From the IMG/VR virus record IMGVR_UViG_3300044556_000129: DNA of 41,480 nt. One strand, written 5' to 3'. This DNA comes from a virus. Both the position numbers and the translations under genes were made by a program. The notes under the pieces are model-generated. The model did not search any database. It saw only the letters and a program-made list of their open reading frames with translations, and was not told where the DNA came from. Shown here one piece after another: positions 1 to 41,480 of this stretch; the stretch's first letter is position 1; each line of letters opens with the position of its first letter.

Positions 1-127
1 GCACTCTGTAAAATGTTGTCTTCATTGTCAAGTACCCACTTGATACGTTCTTCAAATGGGATTTTGTCAAGCCCTGCAAAGCCCGCACCTGCGATGTAGA
101 ACCATTTTAATGATTCTTCATTTGTCA
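1..127. repeat. Terminal overlap: identical to 41354-41480 (circular assembly artefact)
   Basis: Read directly: gcactctgtaaaatgttgtcttcattgtcaag...tcatttgtca occurs at both window ends. The junction lies inside the RNAP ORF. Confidence 0.95.
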
Positions 128-1418
128 AGGGGCTTGGTTCTGCAAAAAGAAGTAGTGCTTTCTGTGTGTCGTCCCCTTGAGGATTCAAGGCAGGACTCAT
201 TGGATAAATGCGTCCCCTATAATCGAGGTTCCATGGGAAATACACACGTTCGTAAACACTATACTTTTTAGCGCACCCTAACGTGGTATTTGTTCTAAGA
301 ACTTTGGATATTCTTGCTCTTTCATGCTTGTAGTACGCTGACAGGCGTTTTTTATGCGCCTCTAATTCTTTGGGCGTCGGGTCAATCAGACGGGGAATTT
401 TTGGTGTTTCGTCCGTTCTAGGAAGACCACCTAACCCACCATGATTTTCCATGATAGACACCATTGTTTCTAGTACTCGCTCATTGATAATAAATGGTGT
501 AGACTGTAAGGCATTTACACACTTGAAAACCCATGTCAAATCTAATTGCTCACATTTTTTTAAATAATGTTCCATGAACGTATTCTTTTGATTAAAATTA
601 GCACGGATGAAATGTGCAAAGGGGGCATTAGCTCCGTAATAAGCACCTTCCCACACTGTTGTCCACGGTTTAGGAGGGATGACACAAGGACTAAACTTAT
701 AACTATTCAACGCCATAATATCAATACTTTTCGCCCATGTCTGTACAAGCCAGTCATTCGCTTTGAGTAGCTTTCGATTCCCTTCTGCTTTATAGTCAAA
801 GTAGCCACTCCCTTGTATTACCGCTTCAAGGATAACAGTCATTAACTTATACAGCCCTTCTTTATCCATAGTTTGCGGCGTGAATTTCATAGTTTTATAT
901 GCTTTTCGTGCATATTGCACTTTAAATGTCATTTGCATACGGTGTTTTAGCCCATCTTCAAAAAATGCCCCATCTTGTCGTGTTGCTTGCTTTAAGTATT
1001 CGTAGCTAATAACTTCTTCCGTGAACGTAGACACAAGTTCATGTAAGTTACTGTTAAAGTCTACATATGTATCCTCCGAGTTATGCATGACAAACCCTAT
1101 CAAAGTGTTTAGAGTGGAGGTTATGCACGTCTTAATAAGTGTGTCTTCGCCCCCTTCATATAAGCTTTTAAGCTGATTTACAACACCTTGATATTTAGGC
1201 ACTACGCCACACTTTTTTTGGGGAAATAAAACGCTTTTAACGTTCATATAACAATCTGAAAAGACATGCTCCATCAGCTTACTACCTAATTTCGTTTCCC
1301 CTGCTGTGCCTTTTAAAGTCGCTTGTTCATATGTAGCACGTAGCACTTTTTCTGCAAAATCTTTTGATTCCTGCTCCAGCTTTAACTGCTCTTGCATAGT
1401 TCCTTTGATTTTTTCCAT
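1..1418 (-). CDS. T7-like single-subunit DNA-directed RNA polymerase, N-terminal part (continues at 41353 across the circular junction; about 869 aa in total)
   Basis: ATG at 1418-1416 is preceded by GGAAGG. The minus frame is in phase with ORF 40162..41319 after removing the 127-bp overlap. Hand translation of 126-300 gives VYFPWNLDYRGRIYPMSPALNPQGDD, matching T7 RNAP WFPYNMDWRGRVYAVSMFNPQGND. Confidence 0.95.
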   Translation of the reverse strand, partial: MEKIKGTMQEQLKLEQESKDFAEKVLRATYEQATLKGTAGETKLGSKLMEHVFSDCYMNVKSVLFPQKKCGVVPKYQGVVNQLKSLYEGGEDTLIKTCITSTLNTLIGFVMHNSEDTYVDFNSNLHELVSTFTEEVISYEYLKQATRQDGAFFEDGLKHRMQMTFKVQYARKAYKTMKFTPQTMDKEGLYKLMTVILEAVIQGSGYFDYKAEGNRKLLKANDWLVQTWAKSIDIMALNSYKFSPCVIPPKPWTTVWEGAYYGANAPFAHFIRANFNQKNTFMEHYLKKCEQLDLTWVFKCVNALQSTPFIINERVLETMVSIMENHGGLGGLPRTDETPKIPRLIDPTPKELEAHKKRLSAYYKHERARISKVLRTNTTLGCAKKYSVYERVYFPWNLDYRGRIYPMSPALNPQGDDTQKALLLFAEPSPLTNEESLKWFYIAGAGFAGLDKIPFEERIKWVLDNEDNILQS

Positions 1419-1456
1419 GGTATTACCTTCCTTTCTAGTAGGTGGAACAATTAACA

Positions 1457-1479
1457 TTTCTTCAATACGTGGCACAATT
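1457..1479 (-). promoter_or_regulatory. Phage RNAP promoter-like element P1, upstream of the RNAP gene
   Basis: The minus strand reads AATTGTGCCACGTATTGAAGAAA. It belongs to a six-copy family with T7-like architecture (AT-rich 5' part, then GAAGAAA). Confidence 0.6.
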
Positions 1480-1545
1480 GATTTCATGAAAGCAAACTAA
1501 TGTTCGATGCTTGATTAAAAAATAATAAAGATAGACAACAATCAT

Positions 1546-1929
1546 CTATCCCCGAACTTTTGTTTGGTGCTTAGGGTATAAATGTGGCGTGTCCTTGTTG
1601 TGATAACAGCGACGAGGTGCGGAGCCATCATATTCCTGCCACAAATGGCACATTTCATGCACCAATGTGGAATAGACTTCTTTGTCGGTTCTTTCGCCAT
1701 CCTTGAGGATGTAATCGGGATTGAGGGCAATTTCACCCCACTGTTCAACACCTTTGGCGTCCGTCCAAATCGAGGGTACGTAATAACCAAATGTATTGCG
1801 TTCGCGGTTTAAAGACAACATAACTTGTGGCAGGCTGTCTTTAAATAATGCTTCGTTGTAATAATCGAATGCCCCCTGTAAAGATTCATACTGTTTTTCT
1901 GTTGGTTTAACTAAAATTTTAGGTTCCAT
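1546..1929 (-). CDS. SprT-like zinc metalloprotease domain protein (early gene)
   Basis: 127-aa ORF with an HExxH motif (LVHEMCHLWQ) in an SprT-like context. RBS GGAAGGAAGG lies upstream. Confidence 0.6.
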   Translation of the reverse strand: MEPKILVKPTEKQYESLQGAFDYYNEALFKDSLPQVMLSLNRERNTFGYYVPSIWTDAKGVEQWGEIALNPDYILKDGERTDKEVYSTLVHEMCHLWQEYDGSAPRRCYHNKDTPHLYPKHQTKVRG

Positions 1930-1953
1930 AATGTACCTTCCTTCCTTGTAAAA

Positions 1954-2025
1954 TGGCTTGTCTCATCAGTATGGCGATTGCCAATCTACCATAGACAAGG
2001 GATTTTAGTCCCCTGTTTCGACACT
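1954..2025 (-). ncRNA. Hammerhead ribozyme, type II topology (HH-A)
   Basis: Minus strand: AGUGUC-GAAA-CAGGGGA-CUAAAA-UCCCUUG-UC^UAUGG-UA-GAUU-GGC-AAUC-G-CCAUA-CUGAUGAG-ACAAGCCA. The full catalytic core is present (CUGAUGA, GAAA, GUC cleavage triplet). Predicted cleavage is after C at 1994. Confidence 0.85.
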
Positions 2026-2278
2026 ATGCAAGAAAGATAAACATATAGAACTTTCCATCTCGATTAATACATATGTATTTACCTACGTCCTCTATATAGT
2101 CAGCTTTTCGTAAAAAATAGGTAGTACAAGAGGGTTCCATACGATTGAGGGGTTTAAAATGAGTGATTGAAAACGACATTCTTCCCTTATGAAAAATTCC
2201 CACGTCAGCAGTGTAACAATCAGTCCTACATACAACTTTTTTTCCTTCTAAAGCTTTATACATTTCTGTTCTTGTCAT
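2024..2278 (-). CDS. Hypothetical 84-aa protein flanked by the two hammerheads
   Basis: ATG ORF with RBS AGAGAGG upstream. Its stop codon UAG overlaps the first nucleotides of HH-A. Confidence 0.55.
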   Translation of the reverse strand: MTRTEMYKALEGKKVVCRTDCYTADVGIFHKGRMSFSITHFKPLNRMEPSCTTYFLRKADYIEDVGKYICINRDGKFYMFIFLA

Positions 2279-2304
2279 GATATATTACCTCTCTTTCAAT
2301 TCAT

Positions 2305-2376
2305 TGGCTTGTCTCATCAGTAGGCAGGTTGCCAGCCTTTCCTAGACACGAGGTTTTAACCCCGTGTTTCGACACT
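2305..2376 (-). ncRNA. Hammerhead ribozyme, type II topology (HH-B)
   Basis: Minus strand: AGUGUC-GAAA-CACGGGG-UUAAAA-CCUCGUG-UC^UAGG-AA-AGG-CUGGCAA-CCU-G-CCUA-CUGAUGAG-ACAAGCCA. The core is identical to HH-A, with compensatory changes in stems I and III. Predicted cleavage is after C at 2345. Confidence 0.85.
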
Positions 2377-2738
2377 TATTTCATATAAACTTTTAACAAT
2401 GTTTTAAGTGCCTTGTTTTCTGCGCGTAGTGCTTGTAATTCCTGTTGAATATGCTGTGCTTCTACTTTTCTGTCTATTTCTTTCTGGTGCTTTTCTATAA
2501 TTTGTGCCTTGTAGTTTTCCGTTTCTTCGTTTATACTTTGTGTTACTTTTTGTACTCGTTGTTTCCAGCGATTAATATAGTTCGGCAAGATGTCGTATTT
2601 TTTAGCTAATTCTTTTCTAGTACTTCCTGCTTCATATTCTTTAACTACCATTGCTTTAAACTCAGGTGTAAATCCCCTCCGTGTGCAGGTAAAGATTTTG
2701 TTAGCATTGATTTTTTGTGTAGTTTCTAAGTTTGTCAT
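2376..2738 (-). CDS. HTH DNA-binding protein, IS3 OrfA-like (HTH_Tnp_1 type) with a leucine zipper; first gene of the early operon
   Basis: RRGFTPEFKAMVVKEYEAGSTRKELAKKYDILPNYINRWKQ resembles the IS3/IS911 OrfA HTH, and the C-terminus is a heptad Leu coiled coil. No DDE transposase ORF follows. Confidence 0.6.
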   Translation of the reverse strand: MTNLETTQKINANKIFTCTRRGFTPEFKAMVVKEYEAGSTRKELAKKYDILPNYINRWKQRVQKVTQSINEETENYKAQIIEKHQKEIDRKVEAQHIQQELQALRAENKALKTLLKVYMK

Positions 2739-2757
2739 AATAAATTACCTCCCATTA

Positions 2758-2881
2758 TTTGTAGTGTTGTTTGAGATTAAAAAAAAATATTTTGTAGTGT
2801 TTTGTAGTGCCTTTCGACTTGACCAAAGTATATCAAACAACACTACATTTGTCAATATAATTTTTGTAGTTTTTTGTAGTG
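2758..2881. promoter_or_regulatory. Operator-like repeat array: TTTGTAGTG x5 direct (2758, 2791, 2801, 2863, 2873) plus one inverted TGTAGTG (2841-2847)
   Basis: Read directly in the divergent intergenic region. The copies overlap both promoters. Confidence 0.6.
2827..2855 (-). promoter_or_regulatory. Sigma70-type early promoter (leftward) for the operon leading to RNAP
   Basis: Minus strand reads TTGACA, a 17-nt spacer (AATGTAGTGTTGTTTGA), then TATACT. The spacer contains a TGTAGTG operator copy. Confidence 0.6.
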
Positions 2882-2907
2882 ACTTTTAAAATTATTTTTG
2901 CTATAAT
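2879..2907 (+). promoter_or_regulatory. Sigma70-type promoter (rightward) for the RHH gene, with an extended -10
   Basis: GTGACT, 17-nt spacer, TGcTATAAT. The -35 overlaps operator copy 2873-2881. Confidence 0.55.
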
Positions 2908-2934
2908 AGAATATATAATAAAAGAGGTGATAAA

Positions 2935-3108
2935 ATGAGCAATCAAAAAATGGAAAATTCAGTCTTTATGCAAATTCGTATTGAGAAAGACACACGTGAC
3001 AAATTTAGGAAACTTTGTAAAGAGAAAGCAATTAATAGTAGTGAATTATTACGTATGCTTATACTCAAGTGGATAAAAAATAATGAGAAAGAATCAAGAC
3101 ACAAGTAA
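2935..3108 (+). CDS. Ribbon-helix-helix (Arc/CopG-like) DNA-binding protein, 57 aa (below the ORF-track cutoff)
   Basis: Hand translation: MSNQKMENSVFMQIRIEKDTRDKFRKLCKEKAINSSELLRMLILKWIKNNEKESRHK. RBS AGAGGTGA lies 5 nt upstream. The pattern is beta-strand then two helices. Confidence 0.6.
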   Translation: MSNQKMENSVFMQIRIEKDTRDKFRKLCKEKAINSSELLRMLILKWIKNNEKESRHK

Positions 3109-3121
3109 TATAGACACAAAA

Positions 3122-3157
3122 AGGCCCCACATAAGCGTAAATGCTCATGTAGGGCCT
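3122..3157. terminator. Bidirectional intrinsic terminator between convergent genes
   Basis: AGGCCC.ACAT.AGC...GCT.ATGT.GGGCCT hairpin flanked by an A-run on the left and a T-rich run on the right. Confidence 0.6.
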
Positions 3158-3166
3158 ATTCTTTAT

Positions 3167-3490
3167 CTATCTATCATGTTTTTGATCAAAGACAACATTA
3201 TTCATATTTTCTATCATTCTTAACTGTGATATATCTTTATCAAGCAGATCTAAATATATACATATCTCTTCTAAATAGTGATTTTCTAATGATATTTTGA
3301 ATAAATTAAGTATTGTCATTATCAAAGCTACATCCAGTTTGTTGTCTTTATTATTGATTGTGTATAAAGCATAAACACAAGCAACCTCTAATAAATAAAA
3401 ATGTTGTTTCATCTTTACATATTTAAAGTAAGTCACAAAAAGAATAAATAAAGTTAATAGAAGACACGCAATAATTATTTTGTTCACCAT
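3167..3490 (-). CDS. Small membrane protein, AT-rich moron-like gene
   Basis: N-terminal TM segment (IIIACLLLTLFILFVTYF). ATG at 3490 with RBS AAGGAAG; the ORF track starts at GTG 3499. It is visibly more AT-rich than its neighbours. Confidence 0.45.
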   Translation of the reverse strand: MVNKIIIACLLLTLFILFVTYFKYVKMKQHFYLLEVACVYALYTINNKDNKLDVALIMTILNLFKISLENHYLEEICIYLDLLDKDISQLRMIENMNNVVFDQKHDR

Positions 3491-3594
3491 TTCCGACACT
3501 TCCTTTATGATATTTTATACCCCTATCATATCACAAATATCTCCGTGTGTCTTTGTGTCTTCTCATTGTGTCTATTAGATACTATACAGTGTTA

Positions 3595-3612
3595 TTGTAT
3601 TGGCTACTACAA
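3595..3612 (-). repeat. 18-nt element copy 1 (minus-strand sense TTGTAGTAGCCAATACAA)
   Basis: Matches 3962-3979 in inverted orientation (17/18) and 25721-25738. Confidence 0.8.
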
Positions 3613-3615
3613 AGG

Positions 3616-3675
3616 TACTAAGAGAGTCTAAGAGGTACTAAGCGATACTAAGAGAGTCTAAGAGGTACTAAGCGC
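3616..3675. repeat. 2 x 30-bp tandem repeat containing six CTAAG motifs at exact 10-bp spacing
   Basis: tactaagagagtctaagaggtactaagcg(a/c) occurs twice. CTAAG starts at 3618, 3628, 3638, 3648, 3658 and 3668. Confidence 0.9.
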
Positions 3676-3891
3676 ATACCAACAGATGACAGAACACATG
3701 TAAAACCACGATTGAACAAAATTTCAAAAAACAACAGATAACCTCATGCCACTCATGAACATATGAACAACTATTCATATATAAAAAGAAACAGATAGTC
3801 AACTAGTAGATTCAGTCAACTATCTAAAAATAAACATACAAATTCTACACGCTTCCGTGCGTATCATATAAAAATCATCTGCGCTCCCACC

Positions 3892-3920
3892 TTGACAAGC
3901 ACGTAATAAGCACTTATAAT
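3892..3920 (+). promoter_or_regulatory. Perfect consensus sigma70 promoter facing the integrase gene
   Basis: TTGACA (3892-3897), 17-nt spacer, TATAAT (3915-3920). The spacer contains ATAAGCACT, the inverted copy of the AGTGCTTAT repeat. Confidence 0.7.
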
Positions 3921-3961
3921 ACTTGTAGAGCTTGATAGTAAGCGATACAGTATTTTACAGG

Positions 3962-3979
3962 TTGTAATAGCCAATACAA
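3962..3979 (+). repeat. 18-nt element copy 2 (TTGTAATAGCCAATACAA) in the integrase leader
   Basis: Read directly. Confidence 0.8.
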
Positions 3980-4071
3980 TTAAGGTTGACTAGGTGCCAT
4001 GGTGTACAATAAGAGAGGAAAAGACTGAAAAGATACTATAGGTACTGTAAAAGTACGGAGCGGCCAAAACG

Positions 4072-4131
4072 AAGGCCATACGGGGGAAAACGGAATCGGA
4101 AGCCCGACACGTAAGGCCTTACAGATTTTTT
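4072..4131 (+). terminator. Terminator/attenuator-like hairpin plus U-run in the integrase leader
   Basis: AAGGCC-TACG-GGG...CCC-CGTA-GGCCTT followed by ACAGATTTTTT. Paired by hand only. Confidence 0.3.
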
Positions 4132-4196
4132 AGAATTTTTAAAGTCCGAAGCGTATCCAAGCGCTTCCAAGCGTACTCGAAAGGAGAAGACACACA

Positions 4197-5306
4197 ATGC
4201 CAAGAACACGACAAAGAAGAAATAAGGGTGAGGGTTCGATAACCAAGACACCCAATGGAAAGTACAAAGCAACCATTACGATTGGAGTTGGAATTGATGG
4301 TAAGCAAAAGAGAAAGTCTGTAACTAGAGACACCAAGCGAGAAGTAATAGACGCCATCACGGAGCTAAGACACAAATATAACATAGGTGATGTATCAAAA
4401 GTGGTGTCTAAGAGCGTCGAGGACGTTTGTGATGAATTTTTAGACATCAAGGAGCAAGCTGTGTCTTTAGCTACCTTTAAATCGTATAGGACACACATTA
4501 ATGCCTTCAAAGAAGTATTTGGGGGTATGATGATAGATAATGTAACAAAGACCATGATTGAGGATTATTATAAATCATTGATAAATAGTCCACATCATTA
4601 TAAATCATCATCCCTGCGGACGAAAAAGACAGTGTTGTCTTCCCTCTTCAACGAAGCGAAGCGTGCAGGATATATAAAGGACAACGTATGGGATACTGCG
4701 AATATACAACTAAAGCGTGTCTTACCCAAAGCGGCCACTATGGTTCTTCCGACACCTGAGCAGTTCCAAAAGCTCTTAGAGGAAGCGGAAAAGTATGCTC
4801 ATTGGTATTATGTACTCCTCTATCTGGCTTCTGTTACTGGAATGAGACGAGGAGAGCTATTAGGTCTTAAATGGGAATGTGTGGATAAAGACACCAAGAC
4901 TATCACCATCAATAATCAATTAAATATAGAAGGTGTCGACAGTCCGTTAAAGACACCTGCATCCTATAGGACAATTTATGTAACCCCAAAGGCATTTGAG
5001 GCTTTAGACACCCTACCTAATAAAAGTCCCTATGTCTTTTCAAGGGACAATGGGATGTTTCGGCCTGTATCGGTGTCATGGCTACAGGAGATTAATGCTG
5101 TTGTCTTTAAGGCCGCTCATATGCCAAAAGGATTTACATTTCATGACATAAGACACTATCATGCCACCCAGCTTTTAAAACATGGTATAAATCCAAAGGT
5201 GGTGAGCAGGAGATTAGGACACACATCTGTGGTTACGACGCTCAATCTGTACTTTAATTATCTTCCCAGTATGGACGAGGAAGCAAGCACAATCTTAGAT
5301 GAATGA
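4197..5306 (+). CDS. int: Tyrosine recombinase / phage integrase
   Basis: 369 aa with catalytic signature R (TGMRRGELLGLKW), HxxR (HDIRHYHATQL) and H...Y (LGHTSVVTTLNLYFNY). RBS AAAGGAGAAG. Confidence 0.93.
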   Translation: MPRTRQRRNKGEGSITKTPNGKYKATITIGVGIDGKQKRKSVTRDTKREVIDAITELRHKYNIGDVSKVVSKSVEDVCDEFLDIKEQAVSLATFKSYRTHINAFKEVFGGMMIDNVTKTMIEDYYKSLINSPHHYKSSSLRTKKTVLSSLFNEAKRAGYIKDNVWDTANIQLKRVLPKAATMVLPTPEQFQKLLEEAEKYAHWYYVLLYLASVTGMRRGELLGLKWECVDKDTKTITINNQLNIEGVDSPLKTPASYRTIYVTPKAFEALDTLPNKSPYVFSRDNGMFRPVSVSWLQEINAVVFKAAHMPKGFTFHDIRHYHATQLLKHGINPKVVSRRLGHTSVVTTLNLYFNYLPSMDEEASTILDE

Positions 5307-5350
5307 GTGCTTATTAAGTGCTTATATGAGAAACAGGCACGAGTGCATGA

Positions 5351-5404
5351 AATTATAAATGGCTAAAAATAGCGGTTGTTCGCTGTTCTTAGCTATTTAT
5401 AATT
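5351..5404. terminator. Long AT-rich hairpin between convergent int and the HTH gene (bidirectional terminator-like)
   Basis: 24-nt arms aattataaatggctaaaaatagcg / cgctgttcttagctatttataatt pair at 21 of 24 positions, with a 6-nt loop. Confidence 0.55.
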
Positions 5405-5472
5405 TTATAAATAACAATGGATAGAATGTGATAAAATAGCCATTTAACAAGTGTTTAAGTGCTTATAGGTGC

Positions 5473-5715
5473 TTATAAGGTAATACTGGTGTCTATTGCA
5501 TGACGCAAGAACTCGTATAGTCCTTTGCGGTGTATTCTCCAATGAGTACCTATTTTGAAGGCTTTCAATGCTTCATTATAACATAGAGCATACACGGTTG
5601 ATAAGGGGACACCAAGCATCTCTGAAACTTCTTTTGGGGAGAAGGTTAGTCTGTTGTCCCATTTATGAGAGGGGGTATAGGTGAAATCATCAACATCAAT
5701 ATTTAAATAGGCCAT
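5473..5715 (-). CDS. Excisionase-family/MerR-like HTH protein (about 80 aa from the internal ATG)
   Basis: EVSEMLGVPLSTVYALCYNEALKAFKIGTHWRIHRKGLYEFL matches the HTH_17/excisionase pattern. ATG at 5715 has RBS AAAGGAG. The longer ORF-track start at 5829 lacks an RBS. Confidence 0.6.
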   Translation of the reverse strand: MAYLNIDVDDFTYTPSHKWDNRLTFSPKEVSEMLGVPLSTVYALCYNEALKAFKIGTHWRIHRKGLYEFLRHAIDTSITL

Positions 5716-5868
5716 AAGGCTCCTTTCGTAGACTAAAGGAAATCTTAGTAGACTTGAGATATGAAAGAATAGTAAAGAATCTTTAAGAATCTCTTTCTTT
5801 GATTTATCATCATCATCAACAATCATCATTAAAGAATCTCTAGTCCCATATATGTCCGAATAATAAAT

Positions 5869-5902
5869 ATGAGGTTCTAGCCATCATCGGCTAGAACCTC
5901 AT
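5869..5902. other. Perfect 14-bp stem hairpin (6-nt loop) in the terminase-distal non-coding region
   Basis: atgaggttctagcc-atcatc-ggctagaacctcat. Confidence 0.8.
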
Positions 5903-5938
5903 AGATTCTATTAGATACTATATATACTTTTCGTCCCC

Positions 5939-5961
5939 TTTCTTCAGTACGTGGCACAATT
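5939..5961 (-). promoter_or_regulatory. Phage RNAP promoter-like element P2
   Basis: Minus strand reads AATTGTGCCACGTACTGAAGAAA. Confidence 0.55.
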
Positions 5962-5971
5962 CTTTTTTTTG

Positions 5972-5990
5972 TTAATATGTGGCACAATTA
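5972..5990 (-). promoter_or_regulatory. Degenerate phage promoter-like element P3
   Basis: Minus strand reads TAATTGTGCCACATATTAA. It lacks the GAAGAAA initiation region. Confidence 0.35.
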
Positions 5991-5998
5991 ATTTTGCA

Positions 5999-7696
5999 TT
6001 AATCATATCTAAGCTCCCTTAGAGCCTTTACGCACTTATGATTATGCGAACTATTTGTATAATTAGGCAATACAGATTCATTCAGCCAATCTTCAAGCTG
6101 TTCTGCTGTCAGCTCTGTAAGTTGACTGTCTTCATCTACATCCATTCGTTCCATGAAGTAAGACACACCAATTGTCAAGGCATCAAGTCTATCATCATGA
6201 CTCAAGGCATTTTTATCACGGCATAGGCGCGTCATCTGATAAATCAATGAGTAATGATAGTCTTGTTGAAAGACTTTAAAGTCCTGTTCGACAACAGGGC
6301 GATTAACAATTAATTTATGCCGCATCATAACAGGTTCTAGTGTGTCTATCATGCGTAGTTCCTTTTGCCCTCTATTGGTGACAGGCTCAATACCACAAGG
6401 ATGTATTCTGTTGAATATAGGGGTCATAAGTTTTGTGAACATCCCATCCCCAAAGTTATCTTCTGGAACTACAATATCAACATCCCAGAATTTCGCCCTA
6501 TTCGCCATCTGAGTGAGTGTTAAGTCTGAGTAACCTTCTTTAAAGCCCCCTACATCCATAAGGAACAAATAGCCATTCAGGTATTTTAAAATAGCATAGA
6601 CTGTTTCATCCTTCCCGCGCCCTGAGGGGTCTATAGCCATTACTGTTGTCTGATAAGGCATTGTTTCGGGACTACGAGATAATTCACTATAATAATAGTC
6701 ACCTGCCATAGCAGTACAAGGAATATCAGACAAAAGCTGTTCACGCCCTTTAGCCCACGCCCATTTAAGGCTACTCTCTTTCATGTCAAGATTTGTAATA
6801 ATCAAGTCAGAGACTTTCAACGGATATTTTTCCGCATCAGACAAGCGAGTATTGAGCATGTATTGAAGTGCAAACCCAGCTTTCCCATAAGACAAGGAAC
6901 GCTTCGCTATTTCTTCTTCATTGAAACGTAAAGGGTCTGTAGGTTTCCCTTCAAGACTAGGATCTGCTTTCAGCTTATTCCAAATAGAGGGAGCGAGGGA
7001 GTCACCATAATTATCTTCTACCCTTGATAATTGAGGATATAATACAGGCCAAATACGGGCAATATATCCACGGTCTTGTAAGGTGTTGTACAGACTAGAT
7101 TCTGTCTGTGGTGTCCCTAGATATATGATTTGACCATTTGGCTTTAGGATTGCGTCAAATTCTTTGACGGCTTCTGAAAGCTTATCACGCTGTTGTTGTG
7201 TTGCGGAGTTCTTAGGGACTTCTACGTCATCTGCGATAAGAATATCCGCACGTGTCCCTGTAATCTGCCCTGTGATACCAATAGACTTTACAGACGGAGA
7301 AATATCAGGGACAACACCTCCCACATCAAAAATGTTCTGTGTGTCTAACTGCCCCTTGTCCGCTATCATGTCAGACAGGAAAGGGAGTGTCTGAATGATA
7401 CGCTTAATAAAGCGAGCATTCGCATCTGCTCTGTCCCCCGAAGCAGACACAATCAAAATCTTTAGCTGCCTTTCCTTCCACAATCTCCACACCACATAAG
7501 CGCACGTTAAGAATGACTTTGCCACCCCACGGAACCCCTCAAGAATGATACGGTCTTTAGGGGGGTTCTGTAGATAGTTTGCAATGTCAATCTGAATGGG
7601 TGTCGGCTGTGGAAGGTCAATAGACCGCCATACAATATAGACAAATGCCCAAAAATGCTCACGTGCCTTCTGTACATCCGCTTCACTCCACTTCAA
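5999..7696 (-). CDS. Terminase large subunit (T7 gp19-like)
   Basis: [19 protein letters not shown]...[24 protein letters not shown]...[29 protein letters not shown] aligns with T7 gp19 FRGIGKSFITCAFVVWSLW...[24 protein letters not shown]. The track start is TTG. Confidence 0.93.
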   Translation of the reverse strand: [565 protein letters not shown]

Positions 7697-7700
7697 ACTA

Positions 7701-7940
7701 TCAACCTTCTTTCAAAAGTTCCATGAAGTCAGGAATCTTAGAAGCTTCCTGTTTGACTTCTTTTACGCCTTCAATCGCAACAGTGGTGTTGAAATCATTG
7801 TCTTTTAAGAACTGGCGTACCTTCGCGAGAAAGGCAGGATTTTTACGCTGTTCCTCATTCTCAAGTCCTTCTAAGAGGGCCTGTACTTCTTCAGTTGCCA
7901 AGCGGTCAATCAGTTCCTGTGGAATGTTAAAATTAGCCAT
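7701..7940 (-). CDS. Small terminase subunit (T7 gp18-like)
   Basis: 79 aa, located directly upstream of TerL. The helical acidic pattern resembles T7 gp18 (LLEGLENEEQRKNPAFLAKVRQFLKDNDF versus LADLSDHERRSPQLYNAISKLLDRHKF). Confidence 0.6.
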   Translation of the reverse strand: MANFNIPQELIDRLATEEVQALLEGLENEEQRKNPAFLAKVRQFLKDNDFNTTVAIEGVKEVKQEASKIPDFMELLKEG

Positions 7941-7946
7941 ATATCA

Positions 7947-8399
7947 TCATCCTCTCTCCATACTACATACTTTTAAATCTTTGTGTGTCTTCCCGAATAT
8001 AATAATAGCACTAGGGAAAGGCGCACTATTCTTACTGTTTCCAAACTTCAAACGCCCTTTGATGAAGCGAATTTCATCCGCTTTCATTGCATAGTCATGC
8101 CACCATTTTGTGTCTGTGCGTGAAGGTACAAGACAGACAACTGTTGTCTTTGCTTCCATAGCTTTCTTCATCCATGCCCCTATTTTTTTTCCGTATGGTG
8201 GGTTCATCCAACAGACACCCTGCCAATCATGGGATAAACCATCGTCAAGGGGTGAAAAGAACTTAGAGCATTTCGCATTTTCAGGTGTGGCACATACATC
8301 TATATCAAAATGAAACTCATCATTCAATCGATTAAATAAATCCTGTGGTGTCTCCCATACTTCACTCTCACTACTATACAAAACACTATTAATAGTCAT
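7947..8399 (-). CDS. Phage Dam-type DNA N6-adenine methyltransferase
   Basis: EVWETPQDLFNRLNDEFHFDIDVCATPENAKC...CWMNPPYG (NPPY catalytic motif). Confidence 0.88.
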   Translation of the reverse strand: MTINSVLYSSESEVWETPQDLFNRLNDEFHFDIDVCATPENAKCSKFFSPLDDGLSHDWQGVCWMNPPYGKKIGAWMKKAMEAKTTVVCLVPSRTDTKWWHDYAMKADEIRFIKGRLKFGNSKNSAPFPSAIIIFGKTHKDLKVCSMERG

Positions 8400-8434
8400 A
8401 TATCCTAACCCCTTTGCGAATTTAAAAATAATAA

Positions 8435-8471
8435 AAGGCTCCCATAGGTAATCACACCTAACAGGAGCCTT
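8435..8471 (-). terminator. Intrinsic terminator
   Basis: Minus strand: AAGGCTCC-21 nt-GGAGCCTT followed by TTTTATTATTTTT. Confidence 0.6.
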
Positions 8472-8498
8472 TGTTCTTGAATCATCACCACAGTCGTC

Positions 8499-8699
8499 CT
8501 AGGGAATAATTTTCACGTTATCCTTGTTTCTCTTTATATATCTTTTGGGATTGCACCCGAATCGATACGGAAACAGCGAACATTTATCCATTATACATTT
8601 ACGTACTTCTGCTGTGTCTCCACAACAACAATCTATACATTTCTCACGGATTGCCTTAGCCATTGATGGTTTCTCTACATTTTTCATACGTACTTTCAT
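8499..8699 (-). CDS. Small Cys-rich (zinc-binding?) protein
   Basis: 66 aa containing CIDCCCGDTAEVRKCIMDKC. RBS GAGGAG. Confidence 0.5.
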   Translation of the reverse strand: MKVRMKNVEKPSMAKAIREKCIDCCCGDTAEVRKCIMDKCSLFPYRFGCNPKRYIKRNKDNVKIIP

Positions 8700-8789
8700 G
8701 TTTTTTCTCCTCTATCACGTTCCAATGGCGTTTTTAGACACATATCATTGTCCTTAGGATAAATTACCCATGGGCAAAAATAACTTTTC

Positions 8790-9236
8790 TTATTTCACAA
8801 CTATACCAATTAGGAGACCCCCTGCAACAGACCACGCCAATTTATTTTGTCGTTCCTTCACTGCCAGTTTGTGCTTCAGGGAGTCCATTTGCTCTGTCAA
8901 CGTCTTTAAAGATGTCTCTACTTCTTTTAATAAGTTCTCTGCTTTCTCTGAGCTTTTCTGTGCTAACAGCATTTGACTCTTGCAGGTCTCCAATTCGTTC
9001 TTCAGCTCTAGTAACTGCTTTTTGTCCGTACTGGAGTTCTGTTCTAATATCTGCAAGTTCATCTCCAAGCTGTCTATGTTCATCTTCAATTCGTTGTATT
9101 GTGATAATGTCATTGTGATTGTCTGCTGATTTGTATGTGGATAGGTAGCTGTAGATGCAAAAGAGACAGAATACAGCGAGGAAACCAATAATGCAGACAG
9201 CAACAATCTTTTCAGCATATTTGATTTTGTCATCAT
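8790..9236 (-). CDS. Lysis-cassette membrane/coiled-coil protein (N-terminal signal or anchor, heptad coiled coil, C-terminal TM); spanin-like
   Basis: 148 aa: MLKRLLLSALLVSSLYSVSFA..., long Leu heptads, C-terminal LAWSVAGGLLIGIVV. Its Arg codon usage fits the genome better than that of the overlapping frame. Confidence 0.5.
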   Translation of the reverse strand: MMTKSNMLKRLLLSALLVSSLYSVSFASTATYPHTNQQTITMTLSQYNELKMNIDSLEMNLQILEQNSSTDKKQLLELKNELETCKSQMLLAQKSSEKAENLLKEVETSLKTLTEQMDSLKHKLAVKERQNKLAWSVAGGLLIGIVVK

Positions 9237-9240
9237 TCAT
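8842..9240 (-). CDS. Alternative overlapping ORF (132 aa; N-terminal TM plus charged coiled coil, Rz/i-spanin-like)
   Basis: ATG abuts the endolysin stop (TAAATG), with GAGGAG 6 nt upstream. Ten of its Arg codons are AGA or CGA and none is CGT, whereas CGT dominates in TerL. Confidence 0.35.
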   Translation of the reverse strand: MNDDKIKYAEKIVAVCIIGFLAVFCLFCIYSYLSTYKSADNHNDIITIQRIEDEHRQLGDELADIRTELQYGQKAVTRAEERIGDLQESNAVSTEKLRESRELIKRSRDIFKDVDRANGLPEAQTGSEGTTK

Positions 9241-9834
9241 TTACAGCTCCTCGTACCATTCATTCATATCAACATTTGTGTCCCCGATATATTCCTTATC
9301 ACTCCACTGCCAACCTGCTACATGCTTATCAGGATACGTCTGAGCAAAACCATTGTATCCACGGTAATCTGCAATCCAATAGGGGACGTAATCAGCAAGC
9401 AAGTGAGGCCGAATAGAGTTTGTCATGTAATCTGTACATTTCAGCGTGGAAGTGTAAATACCGGCACTGTAGCCTGCTTCATTACAAGTGACAATAAAAG
9501 CGGAGCAGACAGCCGTTGTGTCTACGCCATCTTCAAAACATTCATCCGCTTCACAGTCAAACCAAATTCCCATAGGGGGTACATCAGCACCGAGCAAGTC
9601 CAAAACTGTCTGTGCTTCTTCCTTTGCTCTTTCTGGTGTCTTAGCGTGGGAGAAGCAGTAGACACCCCAAGGGATACCCCGTGTCTTACATTCCTCTACG
9701 TGGCGGATCCATGTGTCTTCTTCTGTACAACCTTCCGAGATTTTAACAATGACACCTTGTACGCCAGCGGCTTCCACGGCGTCATAATCAATATCTTTCT
9801 GATAATAGGAAACATCAATTACTTTACTAGTCAT
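9241..9834 (-). CDS. GH25 muramidase endolysin
   Basis: The N-terminus KVIDVSYYQKDIDYDAVEAAGVQGVIVKISEG is the GH25 (Glyco_hydro_25) signature. Confidence 0.88.
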   Translation of the reverse strand: MTSKVIDVSYYQKDIDYDAVEAAGVQGVIVKISEGCTEEDTWIRHVEECKTRGIPWGVYCFSHAKTPERAKEEAQTVLDLLGADVPPMGIWFDCEADECFEDGVDTTAVCSAFIVTCNEAGYSAGIYTSTLKCTDYMTNSIRPHLLADYVPYWIADYRGYNGFAQTYPDKHVAGWQWSDKEYIGDTNVDMNEWYEEL

Positions 9835-10294
9835 CTAACTTATCCACCTTCTTCTCATGTGCAATCTGTGCTAATGCACCTCGAATAAAACTAGGGATAT
9901 ACTGACCATAACCCATACGATCAATATTTTCCACAATACTTAAAGCTTCCACAATTGCGAAGGCCCCAATAAAAAGCGTCCGTACCATATGAGTGTGCAT
10001 AGCAGTATCTAATAAGACACCCAGCCCAATGATAAGGAACATTGTGGCTTTTTTGTATAGGCCGTGTGTAGCAATCGAACTTGCGAAAGCATGGAGTTTA
10101 AAGGAAGCCCAAAGGCCCGTGAGAATATCACAGGCCACAAGGACAACCAAGGCATTAATCTGCTCATCCACGCCACCCACAAGCTGATTGAAACACAACC
10201 AAGCAATAGAAAAAAGACAGCCAATCTTTACCTCTGTGGCTGTCCATAAATTCCATAATGTGTTAACCATTTTGTGTAATGTACCTCGTTTCAT
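9827..10294 (-). CDS. Holin (Firmicute toxin-secretion/phage-lysis holin family, Phage_holin_4_1-like)
   Basis: Three TM segments, with ...ACDILTGLWASF...GLYKKATMFLIIGLGVLLD...AFAIVEALSIVENIDRMG. Confidence 0.75.
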   Translation of the reverse strand: MKRGTLHKMVNTLWNLWTATEVKIGCLFSIAWLCFNQLVGGVDEQINALVVLVACDILTGLWASFKLHAFASSIATHGLYKKATMFLIIGLGVLLDTAMHTHMVRTLFIGAFAIVEALSIVENIDRMGYGQYIPSFIRGALAQIAHEKKVDKLDD

Positions 10295-10512
10295 TTTTCA
10301 TCTTCCTTTATCTGTTCCTTTAAGGTAGCATGAGAAATACGGGCATCAAGAACATCAATGTACTTTTCTGTGAGGTCAATCTGTGCTTTCATTAAATATA
10401 CCTCTGTGTCTTCTAAACCACCAAATTCATGTTTCAAAGTGTCTGTCAGCTCATCCCATACTTTATCAAGGGAGTTTCTCAAGTCTATCATGTCATAAAT
10501 ATAATCTTTCAT
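10291..10512 (-). CDS. Hypothetical acidic helical protein
   Basis: 73-aa ATG ORF with RBS GGAG, translationally coupled to its neighbours. Confidence 0.5.
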   Translation of the reverse strand: MKDYIYDMIDLRNSLDKVWDELTDTLKHEFGGLEDTEVYLMKAQIDLTEKYIDVLDARISHATLKEQIKEDEK

Positions 10513-10516
10513 CCTT

Positions 10517-10678
10517 TTAATCTCCTTTCTTCCCTACGCAATTACCTTCGGTGTCAATCATCCACCCCATATCATCAAGTACCTTATCAATATCTTCTTT
10601 GTACTTAGGGAACCTTGAAATAATGTTGTTATACATAAGTTTATGTAAGATAATCTGATATGATAAGTATTTAGCCAT
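10517..10678 (-). CDS. Hypothetical 53-aa protein (below the ORF-track cutoff)
   Basis: Hand translation: MAKYLSYQIILHKLMYNNIISRFPKYKEDIDKVLDDMGWMIDTEGNCVGKKGD. The ATG overlaps the upstream stop (ATGGCTAA). Confidence 0.45.
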   Translation of the reverse strand: MAKYLSYQIILHKLMYNNIISRFPKYKEDIDKVLDDMGWMIDTEGNCVGKKGD

Positions 10679-11012
10679 CCGTAGCCACTCCTTCCATTAA
10701 GGTATTGACAGCATCCTCAAGAACTGCAATCCGTTCAGACAAAGAGGGTATCTGTGTTGTGCTTTCTGGAACCTGCGAAATTTCAGGTTCTTTCGGTTTT
10801 TCAACTTCTTTAAGAATCCACTGCATACCATCCCAGATACATTTGTGGTCTTCTGGAATTTCAGGGGGTGTTATTTCTACCATGTTGCAAGGAATCTGCC
10901 AAGCACCACTGATAGGACTACGGTCTGTGTGGTCGAGTGTCTTATGCCCTTCATACTCCCCTGTTAAGAGATTAAAGGCATATACTAATTTTGTGTCTTC
11001 CATTATATTCAT
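10671..11012 (-). CDS. Tail fibre assembly protein-like
   Basis: Directly downstream of the tail fibre gene. The N-terminus LVYAFNLLTGEYEGHKTLDHTDRSPISGAWQIPCNMVEITPPEIPEDHKCIWDGMQW fits the Caudo_TAP pattern. Confidence 0.5.
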   Translation of the reverse strand: MNIMEDTKLVYAFNLLTGEYEGHKTLDHTDRSPISGAWQIPCNMVEITPPEIPEDHKCIWDGMQWILKEVEKPKEPEISQVPESTTQIPSLSERIAVLEDAVNTLMEGVATDG

Positions 11013-11018
11013 CTCTCC

Positions 11019-24023: not shown

Positions 24024-24857
24024 CTAAGCAGGATTGCTAATAACACCCATAAAGGTGGATTCCGGACGCAAACCACCAATACCAATAGCGTATTTAGCGA
24101 TTAACTGGTCTGCCTGATATTCAGCACGACGAGCTGTTTCAAAGCTGATGTCTTTCAAGGACAAGACACCAACAGAAGATTTGTGACAAATCAAAAGTGG
24201 GGACTTGCTGGCATATGCCGACGGGAAGGCATGACCATCCCCTTGGATAGTATTAGTCGGGTCATCACCACCCTGTGTCAGATGAGGACACTCAATAATT
24301 TGGAAACCATCCATGCTGATGATATTGGAATTAGTCAGCGTAGCGGCGGCGCCATAATTGCTGTTCAAGAAATCAAGGTTCGTTGCTAGTGCGGCGTGGA
24401 TTTCAGGAGTGACAAAGCAATAACGATCACCCTGCGGTACATAATTCTGCGCCATTTTCGCCTTTACTTCAAGCAGAATATCACGGACAGCAATACCTGT
24501 TTCTTTGTTAATTCCAAGTGTGGAACCAGTTGCGAGTTTCTTTTCAACGACTCCGCCTTTACCAAGACCAGCAACGTTTTCCGTAGTGTTCAGGGCTTCC
24601 TTAGCAACCTCTGCGAGAATAGAAGCATCCATTGAGATTGCCAGTGCTTCGCCGAGCTGTGTAGCATAAGGAGAACGGAAATCATAATGTGCGATAAATT
24701 CGTCAAGGTCAAATACCAAGCAGTCAGTCGTCAACAGACCATCAATAACAATGGTACGTTCACCCTGCTGAATGTTTTCGCGAAGGTCGTCAAGACTCTT
24801 ACCACTTTTAAGGTAATGTGCTTTAGTGCGACCAAATACAGGGAACTGAGCGGATTT
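24024..24857 (-). CDS. Major capsid protein (T7 gp10-like), exon 2
   Basis: The frame is open from 24860 (an in-frame TAA lies just upstream). Hand translation KSAQFPVFGRTKAHYLKSGKSLDDLRENIQQGERTIVIDGLLTTDCLVFD aligns with T7 gp10 KSAQFPVLGRTQAAYLAPGENLDDKRKDIKHTEKVITIDGLLTADVLIYD. There is no ATG or RBS at its 5' end. Confidence 0.9.
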   Translation of the reverse strand, partial: KSAQFPVFGRTKAHYLKSGKSLDDLRENIQQGERTIVIDGLLTTDCLVFDLDEFIAHYDFRSPYATQLGEALAISMDASILAEVAKEALNTTENVAGLGKGGVVEKKLATGSTLGINKETGIAVRDILLEVKAKMAQNYVPQGDRYCFVTPEIHAALATNLDFLNSNYGAAATLTNSNIISMDGFQIIECPHLTQGGDDPTNTIQGDGHAFPSAYASKSPLLICHKSSVGVLSLKDISFETARRAEYQADQLIAKYAIGIGGLRPESTFMGVISNPA

Positions 24858-25473: not shown

Positions 25474-25653
25474 ACCACTCTGAATTGTACGTTTGATAAA
25501 TTTACCATTCGTTACGGAAGCACGTGCAAATGCCGTGAGAGTTTCACCACTAAATACTTTAAGGGCAAGAGCAAGTTTGTCGGCATCTGTGTTTGCCTTT
25601 GTACCAATCGCCATAGGAGTTGCAATTTTAATATCTGCCATAATTAATATCAT
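25474..25653 (-). CDS. Major capsid protein (T7 gp10-like), exon 1
   Basis: DKLALALKVFSGETLTAFARASVTNGKFIKRTIQSG aligns with T7 gp10 DKLALFLKVFGGEVLTAFARTSVTTSRHMVRSISSG. The ORF then runs 2 codons into the intron and stops. Confidence 0.9.
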
Positions 25654-39841: not shown

Positions 39842-39874
39842 GTTTTATGCTCCTTTCAAAAGCTGAATACTTTC

Positions 39875-39897
39875 TTTCTTCACTACGTGGCACAATT
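39875..39897 (-). promoter_or_regulatory. Phage RNAP promoter-like element P4
   Basis: Minus strand reads AATTGTGCCACGTAGTGAAGAAA. It is part of a direct repeat of about 36 bp shared with P5. Confidence 0.65.
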
Positions 39898-39921
39898 AAA
39901 AAGACACCACGGAATACTTTC

Positions 39922-39944
39922 TTTCTTCACTACGTGGCACAATT
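39922..39944 (-). promoter_or_regulatory. Phage RNAP promoter-like element P5
   Basis: Identical to P4. Confidence 0.65.
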
Positions 39945-40117: not shown

Positions 40118-40123
40118 TCTCTT

Positions 40124-40146: not shown

Positions 40147-40161
40147 CAAATCATGTTATAT

Positions 40162-41480
40162 TTATGCAAAGCAATACTTACTATTTACTACATCATCAAG
40201 ATTTAAGTTCCCTTTCGATGGTATTTTAGGTATTTCTTTTCCTTCGGGGAGCAAGTACTCAACATCCTTTAACCATTCCTCTAAGTAATTGTGGTCTTTG
40301 TACATATTGACTAATTCAGTACGAATAGACTTAAATAAGTCCCCTGCATGTTCTATATCTGTACCAAAACTATCATGAATCATGAAGAAGTTGATATTTC
40401 CTTTTTCAGCTTGATTCATGATTACTCTTTGCATGTGACACGCATCCATACTGTGGATAAAGTTAGGGGCGATTGCTTGGGCTTGTCCCCTTGTGTCTAT
40501 GTTGGTGCTATCTTGGGGAACATAGATACGAATGAAACCACCATTAAAGCGCATACGGCATGTTTCCATGTTAGGTACAAATTTATTCTGTTGGATTGGT
40601 AAGCCATTGGGGCTTGTCCATGCTACGACTTCTCCGTTCTTTCCAATAAGAGAAGCGACCTTTTTCAGCCATTCCATGCCCTCTACGGCCTTTACAACCG
40701 TGGTGGTTACAGCGTCCCAAATCAATTTTGCCATGTAGTTTGCGGCCTGTGAGCGACTCAAGAAGATAGGGCTGTCTTTATGTTCATCAATCCATGGCTT
40801 GATAATGTCGGACTTGAGGTTTTCGGAGAAACCATACGTCCTTGAACCATACGCAAGAGTCATGACAGAACGCTTGCAAACTTTACGCTTGATACCGTCC
40901 GAACCGAATTTCTCGCGGCCATACATCAGCCATTCAGACGCAAGTTCTTTTGTGCCATATGCAATGCACTTTTTGCCCTTGTTGTCAAGTACATATTCGC
41001 CTGTTTTCTTATCTTTTTTGAAGTCATCTGCTGTCCCCTCTAATGCGTCTTTATGTAAGACAACGTTTACTTTATCAGCCACGACTTGATAAATATCATG
41101 AACTTTTTCATCGGGTATAAGATTTACATTTTTTCCACCCACTTCATCAGCAAGAAGCATGGAGAAGTGTTGCAAACCTGAACACGTTCCATCAAAGCTA
41201 ATTGGAAGTCCCGACTTGTAGCCAATTGCGGAACCGTTGTGTTCTGCTTGATAGACACGGAGTCTTTCAAATTCAAAACAGAAAGACAAGAAGCACATAG
41301 GACTTTCGTCACCTGCCACTTCGTTCCACCACGTGTACGTAAGAGGGGAAGCGGCACTCTGTAAAATGTTGTCTTCATTGTCAAGTACCCACTTGATACG
41401 TTCTTCAAATGGGATTTTGTCAAGCCCTGCAAAGCCCGCACCTGCGATGTAGAACCATTTTAATGATTCTTCATTTGTCA
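40162..41480 (-). CDS. T7-like single-subunit RNA polymerase, C-terminal part (ORF open to the window edge; continues into 1-1418)
   Basis: DESPMCFLSFCFEF...PISFDGTCSGLQHFSMLLADEVGGKNVNL...RSVMTLAYGS...IAPNFIHSMDACHM...FFMIHDSFGT...KGNLNLDDVVNSKYCFA aligns with T7 RNAP DSPFCFLAFCFEY...[29 protein letters not shown]...IAPNFVHSQDGSHL...FALIHDSFGT...KGNLNLRDILESDFAFA. Confidence 0.97.
   Translation of the reverse strand, partial: TNEESLKWFYIAGAGFAGLDKIPFEERIKWVLDNEDNILQSAASPLTYTWWNEVAGDESPMCFLSFCFEFERLRVYQAEHNGSAIGYKSGLPISFDGTCSGLQHFSMLLADEVGGKNVNLIPDEKVHDIYQVVADKVNVVLHKDALEGTADDFKKDKKTGEYVLDNKGKKCIAYGTKELASEWLMYGREKFGSDGIKRKVCKRSVMTLAYGSRTYGFSENLKSDIIKPWIDEHKDSPIFLSRSQAANYMAKLIWDAVTTTVVKAVEGMEWLKKVASLIGKNGEVVAWTSPNGLPIQQNKFVPNMETCRMRFNGGFIRIYVPQDSTNIDTRGQAQAIAPNFIHSMDACHMQRVIMNQAEKGNINFFMIHDSFGTDIEHAGDLFKSIRTELVNMYKDHNYLEEWLKDVEYLLPEGKEIPKIPSKGNLNLDDVVNSKYCFA
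41354..41480. repeat. Second copy of the 127-bp terminal overlap
   Basis: Exact repeat of 1-127. Confidence 0.95.

Follow-up and report, generated by a model that had tools for sequence, protein, structure and literature searches.

Paired type II hammerhead ribozymes predicted between the cistrons of a putative early operon in a T7-like phage

Two hammerhead elements upstream of a phage RNA polymerase gene

Here, we describe a pair of predicted self-cleaving RNAs encoded on the minus strand of IMG/VR virus record IMGVR_UViG_3300044556_000129, a 41,480-nucleotide (nt) stretch of DNA of an uncultured T7-like phage, analysed over its whole length (hereafter, the window). Both elements, copy A at 2301..2376(-) and copy B at 1950..2025(-), comprise a complete hammerhead core in the type II order and are located between the cistrons of an apparently sigma70-driven operon leading to the phage gene for a T7-like single-subunit RNA polymerase (RNAP). 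Their assignment as canonical type II hammerheads is supported by a consensus descriptor, a custom covariance model (CM), covariation within the phage lineage and a pseudoknot. We propose that both are probably active ribozymes in the early operon of a temperate T7-like podovirus, where they would cut the polycistronic mRNA into insulated single-cistron mRNAs.

Read along the minus strand, the two copies share one plan: a stop codon, UGUC, GAA, a 22-nt hairpin whose first base is A and last base is U, a single C, a 24-nt hairpin, CUGAUGA, GACA, A and GCCA. In hammerhead terms this is the stem II 3' strand, G12-A14, a closed stem III, C17, a closed stem I, C3-A9 and the stem II 5' strand. Copy A reads UAA-G-UGUC-GAA-ACACGGGG UUAAAA CCUCGUGU-C(2345)-UAGGAAAGGCUGGCAACCUGCCUA-CUGAUGA-GACA-A-GCCA, with the stem II 3' strand at 2374-2371, G12A13A14 at 2370-2368, the stem III hairpin at 2367-2346, C17 at 2345 (predicted cleavage between 2345 and 2344), the stem I element at 2344-2321 (loop UGGC at 2334-2331), CUGAUGA at 2320-2314, the stem II 5' strand GACA at 2313-2310 and the GCCA tail at 2308-2305; besides its sequence, it is identified by a descriptor match at 2311-2373, the custom CM and its minimum free energy (MFE) fold. 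Copy B reads UAG-UGUC-GAA-ACAGGGGA CUAAAA UCCCUUGU-C(1994)-UAUGGUAGAUUGGCAAUCGCCAUA-CUGAUGA-GACA-A-GCCA, with UGUC at 2023-2020, GAA at 2019-2017, stem III at 2016-1995, C17 at 1994 (predicted cleavage between 1994 and 1993), the stem I element at 1993-1970 (loop UGGC at 1983-1980), CUGAUGA at 1969-1963, GACA at 1962-1959 and the tail at 1957-1954, and is identified by its sequence, a descriptor match at 1960-2022 and the custom CM. The two predicted cleavage sites, C2345 and C1994, are 351 nt apart. Every invariant position is canonical in both copies (C3 U4 G5 A6 U7 G8 A9, the G10.1-C11.1 pair, G12 A13 A14, the A15.1-U16.1 pair and C17) and the cleavage triplet is GUC, in agreement with a preliminary description of this DNA that had claimed two complete type II cores on the minus strand; the cleavage sites and the juxtaposition with upstream stop codons given there also proved correct on reading the sequence.

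Stem II is open and consists of 4 base pairs (bp), UGUC/GACA, and loops close both stem I and stem III. The preliminary description was right that all three helices are present, with some correction of their extent: the stem II strand is not GUGUC, as the first G is unpaired; stem III pairs as described and has a length of 8 bp once A15.1-U16.1 is counted; and stem I is closed, but instead of a simple helix of 4-5 bp it forms, in both copies, a 24-nt element in which a bulge or mismatch separates 4-6 bp of outer helix from 2-3 bp of inner helix, capped by a 7-nt loop, N-UGGC-AA. The compensatory differences between the copies are real, and fall at pairs 4 (G.U in copy A, C-G in copy B), 6 (G-C, G.U) and 8 (A-U, G-C) of stem III and at pairs 3 and 9 of stem I. 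In both copies the UGGC of loop I is complementary to the GCCA tail 3' of stem II and could form a 4-bp pseudoknot, an early suggestion with which conservation in relatives and a class-level permutation test (see below) agree. The MFE fold of copy A is the three-way junction itself (-21.5 kcal/mol), and the hairpins of the two copies fold at -12.1 and -10.2 kcal/mol for stem III and at -6.8 and -5.9 kcal/mol for the stem I element.

Tests of ribozyme identity

A generic descriptor composed of the textbook consensus only (CUGAUGA, GAAA, U-H, a minimum of 4 bp in each of stems I and III, and 3 bp in stem II) found exactly two sites in the window, both of them these elements on the minus strand, and none in 300 dinucleotide shuffles searched on both strands. 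A specific pattern derived from the two copies had no match in 100 shuffles, and CUGAUGA itself occurs only eight times on both strands of the window. A chance match to the hammerhead consensus is excluded.

Scanning IMG/VR with the pattern GTCGAAAC...GTC...CTGATGAGAC showed that type II hammerheads are abundant in phage contigs: at least 120 contigs fit this one narrow pattern, several of them with 2-7 copies, and 144 elements were extracted among the matches listed. The custom CM was built from 65 unrelated viral elements of type II with a GACA tail, among the matches listed; in these 65 sequences, RNAalifold recovered all three helices of the hammerhead, with compensatory changes in 11 of 16 pairs. 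Run with filters off, the model scored copy B at 49.8 bits (E 4e-12) and copy A at 47.2 bits (E 2e-11), with the next-best match in the window at 10.9 bits. As the training set was chosen by a core pattern that also fits the window copies, the core contributes to these scores partly by construction, and the helices and spacing are the independent evidence. The pseudoknot was evaluated at the level of the class, in 89 unrelated IMG/VR elements among the matches listed, where the longest Watson-Crick helix between loop I and an element's own tail has a mean of 4.8 bp compared to 3.1 +/- 0.09 bp with tails permuted; the 24-nt stem I of the window copies falls inside the 21-24-nt range of these 89 elements. 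No U-tract follows the hairpins of the window copies.

Hammerheads in related phages

Relatives were defined as 18 IMG/VR loci retrieved with the N-terminal region of the RNAP (41-94% identity). The custom CM identified 16 further hammerheads in 11 related phages with RNAPs 65-94% identical, at 42.6-51.4 bits and with one to three copies per phage, all of them on the RNAP strand and 1-3 kb upstream of the RNAP gene. Most relatives carry a single hammerhead. Where copies are paired they are spaced by 339, 344, 377, 599 and 1166 nt, and the spacing is not conserved, as a multiple of three or otherwise. Among the matches listed, two distant T7-like contigs (L023 and L083; RNAPs 27-28% identical) likewise carry type II hammerheads on the RNAP strand, at 3-5 kb upstream of that gene.

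When all 18 copies were aligned, standard pairs filled 96.5% of the cells of the four helices, in comparison to 34-43% with partners slid by 1-3 columns, and five pairs were changed on both sides. Stem III occurs in two sequence types, AAGGGA/UCCCUU and ACGGGG/CCUCGU, of which the window holds one each, and the G.U pairs in stems I and III make the structure possible only in the minus-strand reading. The pseudoknot of the relatives is retained as UGGCU/AGCCA in nine and as CGGC/GCCG, a double change, in L127. The invariant core bases are kept in all 18 copies except for a tolerated substitution, U4C.

The position of the elements relative to genes is equally regular. A strong Shine-Dalgarno sequence (SD) and an ATG are found 20-28 nt past the GCCA tail in 18 of 18 copies, the upstream stop codon adjoins the first nucleotides of the element in most copies, and in the window and 8 of 11 relatives the first hammerhead is preceded, at a distance of 210-510 nt, by a sigma70-type promoter matching the consensus in at least 11 of 12 positions. 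One family of open reading frames (ORFs), F19 (L121:2514-2780, L122:3194-3463, L131:3708-3974 and L132:545-685), reads about 20 nt into the hammerhead and ends at a UAA in the stem III loop, with its last codons encoded by the stem II strand, GAAA and the stem III 5' strand.

The operon and its predicted promoters

Along the direction of transcription, the operon of the window is composed of a sigma70-type promoter, a helix-turn-helix (HTH) gene, copy A, an 84-amino acid (aa) gene, copy B, a SprT-like gene, a 22-nt motif and the RNAP gene. The promoter at 2827..2855(-), TTGACA-17-TATACT with an extended -10 TG and flanked by repeated (C)ACTACAAAA boxes, matches the consensus in 11 of 12 positions, and transcription through both ribozymes probably starts from it; here as elsewhere in this study, promoter assignments are consensus matches and not measurements. 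Between this promoter and the ribozymes there is neither a copy of the 22-nt motif nor a terminator-like hairpin.

Cistron 1 (2376..2738(-), 120 aa) encodes a DNA-binding protein of the HTH_Tnp_1 type (PF01527, E 1.6e-9), and its stop codon UAA (2378-2376) adjoins copy A. Cistron 2 (2024..2278(-), 84 aa, no family match) lies between the two hammerheads; its SD, GAGAGG, and ATG lie 26 nt past the tail of copy A, and its stop codon UAG overlaps the start of copy B. Cistron 3 (1546..1929(-), 127 aa) has a SprT-like metallopeptidase domain (PF10263, E 9e-9), with its SD, AAGGAAGG, and ATG 24 nt past the tail of copy B. All three genes are called in public assemblies, and these independent calls leave gaps of 97 and 94 nt exactly at the ribozyme sites. 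Relatives encode SprT-like proteins of 223-252 aa (e.g., L122:4399-5085), and the copy in the window appears truncated or frameshifted; it is overlapped by an 82-aa ORF (1542-1790) that matches an alternative-frame ORF family of the relatives (F1).

The RNAP gene (869 aa; Pfam RNA_pol, phrog_414) has its N-terminal part at 1..1418(-) and continues across the circular junction to 41353..40162(-), with its start at 1418(-) located 536 nt after copy B. Directly upstream of this start, at 1458..1479(-), is the 22-nt motif AATTGTGCCACGTAtTGAAGAA, identified in repeat families D2/D3 and by a motif scan. Six minus-strand copies of the motif (AATTGTGCCACGTAGTGAAGAA), at 1458-1479, 5923-5992, 39859-39947 and 40107-40148, are distributed directly before the RNAP gene, just after it, near 5923-5992 and near the terminase end. 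Because the motif changes in step with the RNAP lineage among relatives (e.g., GTGGCACCTAAC), it looks like the phage's own promoter. The copy directly preceding the RNAP gene suggests RNAP autoregulation. The order of these elements, with a sigma70-type promoter at 2855..2827(-), the RNAP start at 1418(-) and no phage motif before the ribozymes, agrees with an earlier proposal of a host-transcribed early operon leading to the RNAP.

The stretch at 2760-2935 resembles a divergent control region, with at least five (C)ACTACAAAA boxes around the sigma70-type promoter, including an inverted copy within its spacer, and a divergent plus-strand ORF at 2935-3108 (57 aa) with a sub-threshold ribbon-helix-helix match. 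Taken with an integrase gene on the plus strand at 4197-5306(+), the region has the look of an early switch under repressor control in a temperate T7-like phage. Six 10-nt units (TACTAAGAGAG/TCTAAGAGG-like on the plus strand; repeat family D4) are arrayed in tandem at 3616-3674, in a non-coding stretch upstream of the early genes.

Proposed role in intercistronic processing

We propose the following sequence of events for the processing of the early transcript. As host RNA polymerase makes the polycistronic RNA, the local hairpins would form first, stem III and then stem I, after which stem II and the pseudoknot of loop I with the tail, 4 bp each, would close the three-way junction. The RNA would then cleave itself after C2345 and C1994 with Mg2+ alone, making a host nuclease unnecessary. 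The upstream cistron would be left with a 3' end consisting of the stable 8-bp stem III hairpin plus C>p, and the downstream cistron would open with the stem I hairpin, which would carry the 5'-OH at its very start, and have its SD and AUG about 45 nt further on. Type II is the permutation in which both new ends are hairpins and the products are tethered only by stem II and the pseudoknot; therefore each cut would leave two defined ends, and the products should be able to separate. Each cistron would thereby come to lie on an mRNA of its own, with defined ends capped by hairpins, and its stability and translation would no longer be tied to the neighbouring cistrons.

Terminal hairpins impede 3' exonucleases and 5'-end-dependent decay, and the hairpins at both new ends suggest that cleavage would yield discrete and more stable single-cistron mRNAs. 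The early mRNAs of T7 are matured by host RNase III at equivalent positions, with effects on mRNA stability that are textbook knowledge, and the analogy between the two systems is a reasonable one. Self-catalysed intercistronic processing and insulation is, on this analogy, the most economical reading of the elements, from which we infer cleavage in vivo, protection of the ends and a benefit to the phage. The setting in this lineage is unusually readable, comprising one sigma70-type promoter, two or three small cistrons, a T7-type RNAP gene and an SD and ATG at fixed distance, and as T7 has RNase III sites in the same positions, the processing and insulation hypothesis is directly testable.

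Several observations weigh against this proposal. Two relatives (L124 and L135) have intact upstream regions without a hammerhead, which argues that the elements are dispensable; no other ribozyme class was found in these two by Rfam. U4C (CCGAUGAG instead of CUGAUGAG) occurs in 9 of the 16 copies of the relatives, belonging to L122, L125, L130, L131, L132 and L136, with cores and helices otherwise intact. This substitution considerably lowers activity in vitro, yet supports viroid infectivity (Perreault et al., PMC3088659), and since it is both frequent in the relatives and reported as less active, a high cleavage rate may not be what is selected. The same variants provide a ready-made natural series of different expected activities. 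In copy B, a competing 7-bp helix, CUUGUCU/AGACAAG, gives an alternative MFE fold of -21.2 kcal/mol, compared to -19.3 kcal/mol for the hammerhead secondary structure, an advantage of 1.9 kcal/mol when the pseudoknot is not counted. We considered this helix as a conserved switch and rejected it as a designed feature, as beta-type copies do not have it. Stabilisation by a 5'-OH and terminal hairpins, moreover, depends on the RNases of the host.

The last point on this side is the silence of the curated Rfam model for the class, RF02276 (Hammerhead_II; Rfam release 15, gathering threshold 37 bits). At the gathering threshold, Rfam found no hammerhead in the whole window and a group I intron as the sole match, and RF02276 was equally silent at E<=10 on a 1-kb slice and on two 111-nt slices around the elements; the type II match that the preliminary description had expected at both loci was thus reported at neither. 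Nor did the model find any copy in 16 related loci, even at E<=10, and it detects 0 of the 18 hammerheads of this phage lineage. Permissive Rfam scans gave a weak partial match to RAGATH-1-hammerhead (15-18 bits) over stem III of copy A only. On 13 other viral loci, among the matches listed, RF02276 gave 39-47 bits to 15 of 22 type II elements defined by the pattern and did not report the other 7. We do not take the silence as a refutation, because the descriptor and custom CM tests are strong and RF02276 misses other clear examples; rather, it suggests that the curated model or its filters are limited in sensitivity, and not that the RNA is at fault. The elements match the type II class in every tested feature except the RF02276 score. 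Given that RF02276 is blind to this whole lineage, surveys relying on it under-count phage hammerheads.

Alternative explanations

The alternative that survives best, though we consider it improbable, is that the hammerhead and its SD leader of about 30 nt form a conserved linker at module boundaries, acting as a homology island for cassette exchange or persisting as a passenger, with self-cleavage incidental or mildly useful. When the early region was compared to relatives by blastn, the hammerhead and about 30 nt downstream were often the sole match, with differing ORFs on either side: none of the relatives has a nucleotide homologue of the HTH gene, and ORF family F22 is followed by F2, F19 or F3 depending on the phage. 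Moreover, an identical alpha-type stem III sequence is present in 10 of the relatives' 16 copies, in phages with RNAPs only 65-80% identical to that of the window, and this identity across phages with divergent RNAPs suggests recent spread rather than free covariation. The genes flanked by phage hammerheads are also described in the literature as 'not constant' (PMC3088659, PMC6155905). However, a patch of DNA homology would need neither cores that are intact save the tolerated U4C, nor stems that compensate, nor a retained pseudoknot, and the orientation of the elements and their fixed distance to the SD and ATG point to a role at the level of RNA. A linker is compatible with a role in processing and does not exclude it.

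Cleavage could also be deliberately partial or conditional, making the ribozymes a regulatory valve on read-through into the RNAP gene that sets RNAP dosage or the lysis-lysogeny decision of an integrase-bearing phage, which we regard as unlikely. The ribozymes do stand between an operator-rich promoter region and the RNAP gene, the attenuated U4C variants are frequent in relatives, copy B has its competing fold, and translating ribosomes could interfere with folding where stop codons adjoin or enter the ribozyme. Against this, we see no sign of a ligand-binding or switch element, beta-type copies lack the alternative helix of copy B, and the RNAP gene is directly preceded by a phage-type promoter of its own, so that RNAP expression need not long depend on the early transcript.

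Excision of the 351-nt segment between C2345 and C1994, carrying the 84-aa ORF, and rejoining of its ends by a reverse hammerhead reaction or a host ligase of the RtcB type, to give a circular or spliced RNA, is very unlikely. The 3' half of copy A and the 5' half of copy B share identical core, stem II and tail sequences, and the ends of an excised RNA could therefore rebuild a complete hammerhead, a possibility raised for clustered phage hammerheads by Perreault et al. (PMC3088659). The same authors looked at other loci for RNAs that had been spliced or circularised, without finding any (PMC3088659), most relatives have a single hammerhead, and the spacing of paired copies is not conserved. 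If such religation did occur, a DNA phage would encode a circular mRNA for an 84-aa protein made by the route of viroids and retrozymes. Least credible of all is that the elements are not ribozymes but DNA sites that were duplicated, hairpins of the terminator or RNase III type, or a chance fit to the consensus, as the silence of Hammerhead_II, the sole point in its favour, extends to 7 of 22 other type II elements (among the matches listed), and is set against two descriptor sites versus none in 300 shuffles, custom CM scores of 47-50 bits, a core invariant in 18 copies save U4C, strand-specific G.U pairs, compensatory helix changes and hairpins that no U-tract follows.

Comparison with known systems

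Natural type II hammerheads are common in bacteria, and the majority of them have a pseudoknot between loop I and the 3' tail, the tertiary contact that defines the class and was shown to be necessary for fast cleavage, with stem II helices noted down to 1-2 bp (Perreault et al. 2011, PMC3088659). The elements of the window have the same core and permutation as the published class (RF02276), an open and short stem II and the loop I/tail pseudoknot, and match the consensus tail AGCCA and loop UGG. They differ in their higher AU content, in the 8 bp of stem III, in the bulge of the 24-nt stem I and in a stem II of 4 bp (as in most lineage members) instead of the usual 3 bp, and in scoring below the reporting level of the model.

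In prophages, multiple hammerheads flank individual, non-constant genes, and it has been proposed that long phage transcripts are processed by them into single-gene mRNAs (PMC3088659, Fig. 3 for the former). A 2017 review considered the role of prokaryotic hammerheads an open question and stressed the phage link (PMC6155905), and in 2021 three type II hammerheads beside phage-like genes of Desulfovibrio vulgaris were shown by cyPhyRNA-seq to cleave in vivo, as well as in vitro (PMC8782182). The window shares with these clusters (Perreault 2011; D. vulgaris) the intergenic copies a few hundred nt apart that flank small non-conserved ORFs and the processing hypothesis for polycistronic phage RNA; what differs is the placement in a putative sigma70-type early operon directly upstream of a T7-like RNAP gene, kept in 11 relatives. 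In our literature search, no description of hammerheads in T7-like early operons was found, only their general link to phages. As the architecture, the pseudoknot and the grouping around small phage ORFs have all been published before, there is little here to surprise specialists, and the paired elements are a clean further example of a well-populated known class in a known kind of context. Their residual value lies in the readable T7-type setting with natural core variants, and in a documented blind spot of Rfam.

A functional analogue is provided by the well-established sites at which RNase III processes the early transcript of phage T7, as reported by Dunn and Studier in 1983. Both those sites and the ribozymes described here are intercistronic, in what would be a host-transcribed early operon that includes gene 1 (RNAP), and cleavage at either would leave the upstream mRNA with a hairpin as its 3' end. 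In contrast to cleavage by a host endonuclease in T7, yielding 3'-OH and 5'-phosphate ends, the predicted self-cleavage would yield a 2',3'-cyclic phosphate and a 5'-OH, and the two kinds of site have no sequence or structural relationship, making this an analogy and not membership of one class. A synthetic counterpart is RiboJ, a ribozyme insulator said to have been introduced by Lou et al. in 2012, in which a hammerhead stands ahead of the ribosome binding site. In either system the hammerhead is at a fixed short distance upstream of the SD and would make the 5' end of the mature mRNA independent of upstream sequence; unlike RiboJ, the elements of the window are natural, are of type II rather than type III and are situated between cistrons rather than after a promoter.

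Other features of the window and of related contigs

The window is a circularly assembled contig, as indicated by a 127-nt terminal direct repeat. Its large genes are all on the minus strand and include a T7-type terminase, tail fibre, nozzle, portal, DNA polymerase, primase-helicase and anaerobic ribonucleotide reductase. Megablast of positions 1-8000 against 50,697 phage records gave no match, and the RNAPs of the closest cultured phages are only about 34% identical. A host search of 185,579 representative genomes with the RNAP as query and with a lineage-specific 21-mer also gave no match, and no tRNA was found in the window.

The group I intron of the window (24905-25491(-); RF00028, 64.4 bits) carries a 172-aa ORF of the Endonuclease_7 family (24946-25464). 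As the ORF immediately downstream, at 24024-24734, matches only positions 40-274 of a major capsid profile (T7 Gp10A-like), the gene for this protein appears to be interrupted by the intron.

Extreme clustering of hammerheads was observed in an unrelated viral contig, IMGVR_UViG_3300008255_000242 (L036), in which seven type II elements occur within 3 kb at 8400-11320. Finally, two of the RNAP loci used here, L131 and L134 (78% and 92% identical to the query), are located about 44 kb apart on one contig of 87,139 nt, IMGVR_UViG_3300044857_000313, which suggests either a chimeric assembly or two tandem phage genomes.

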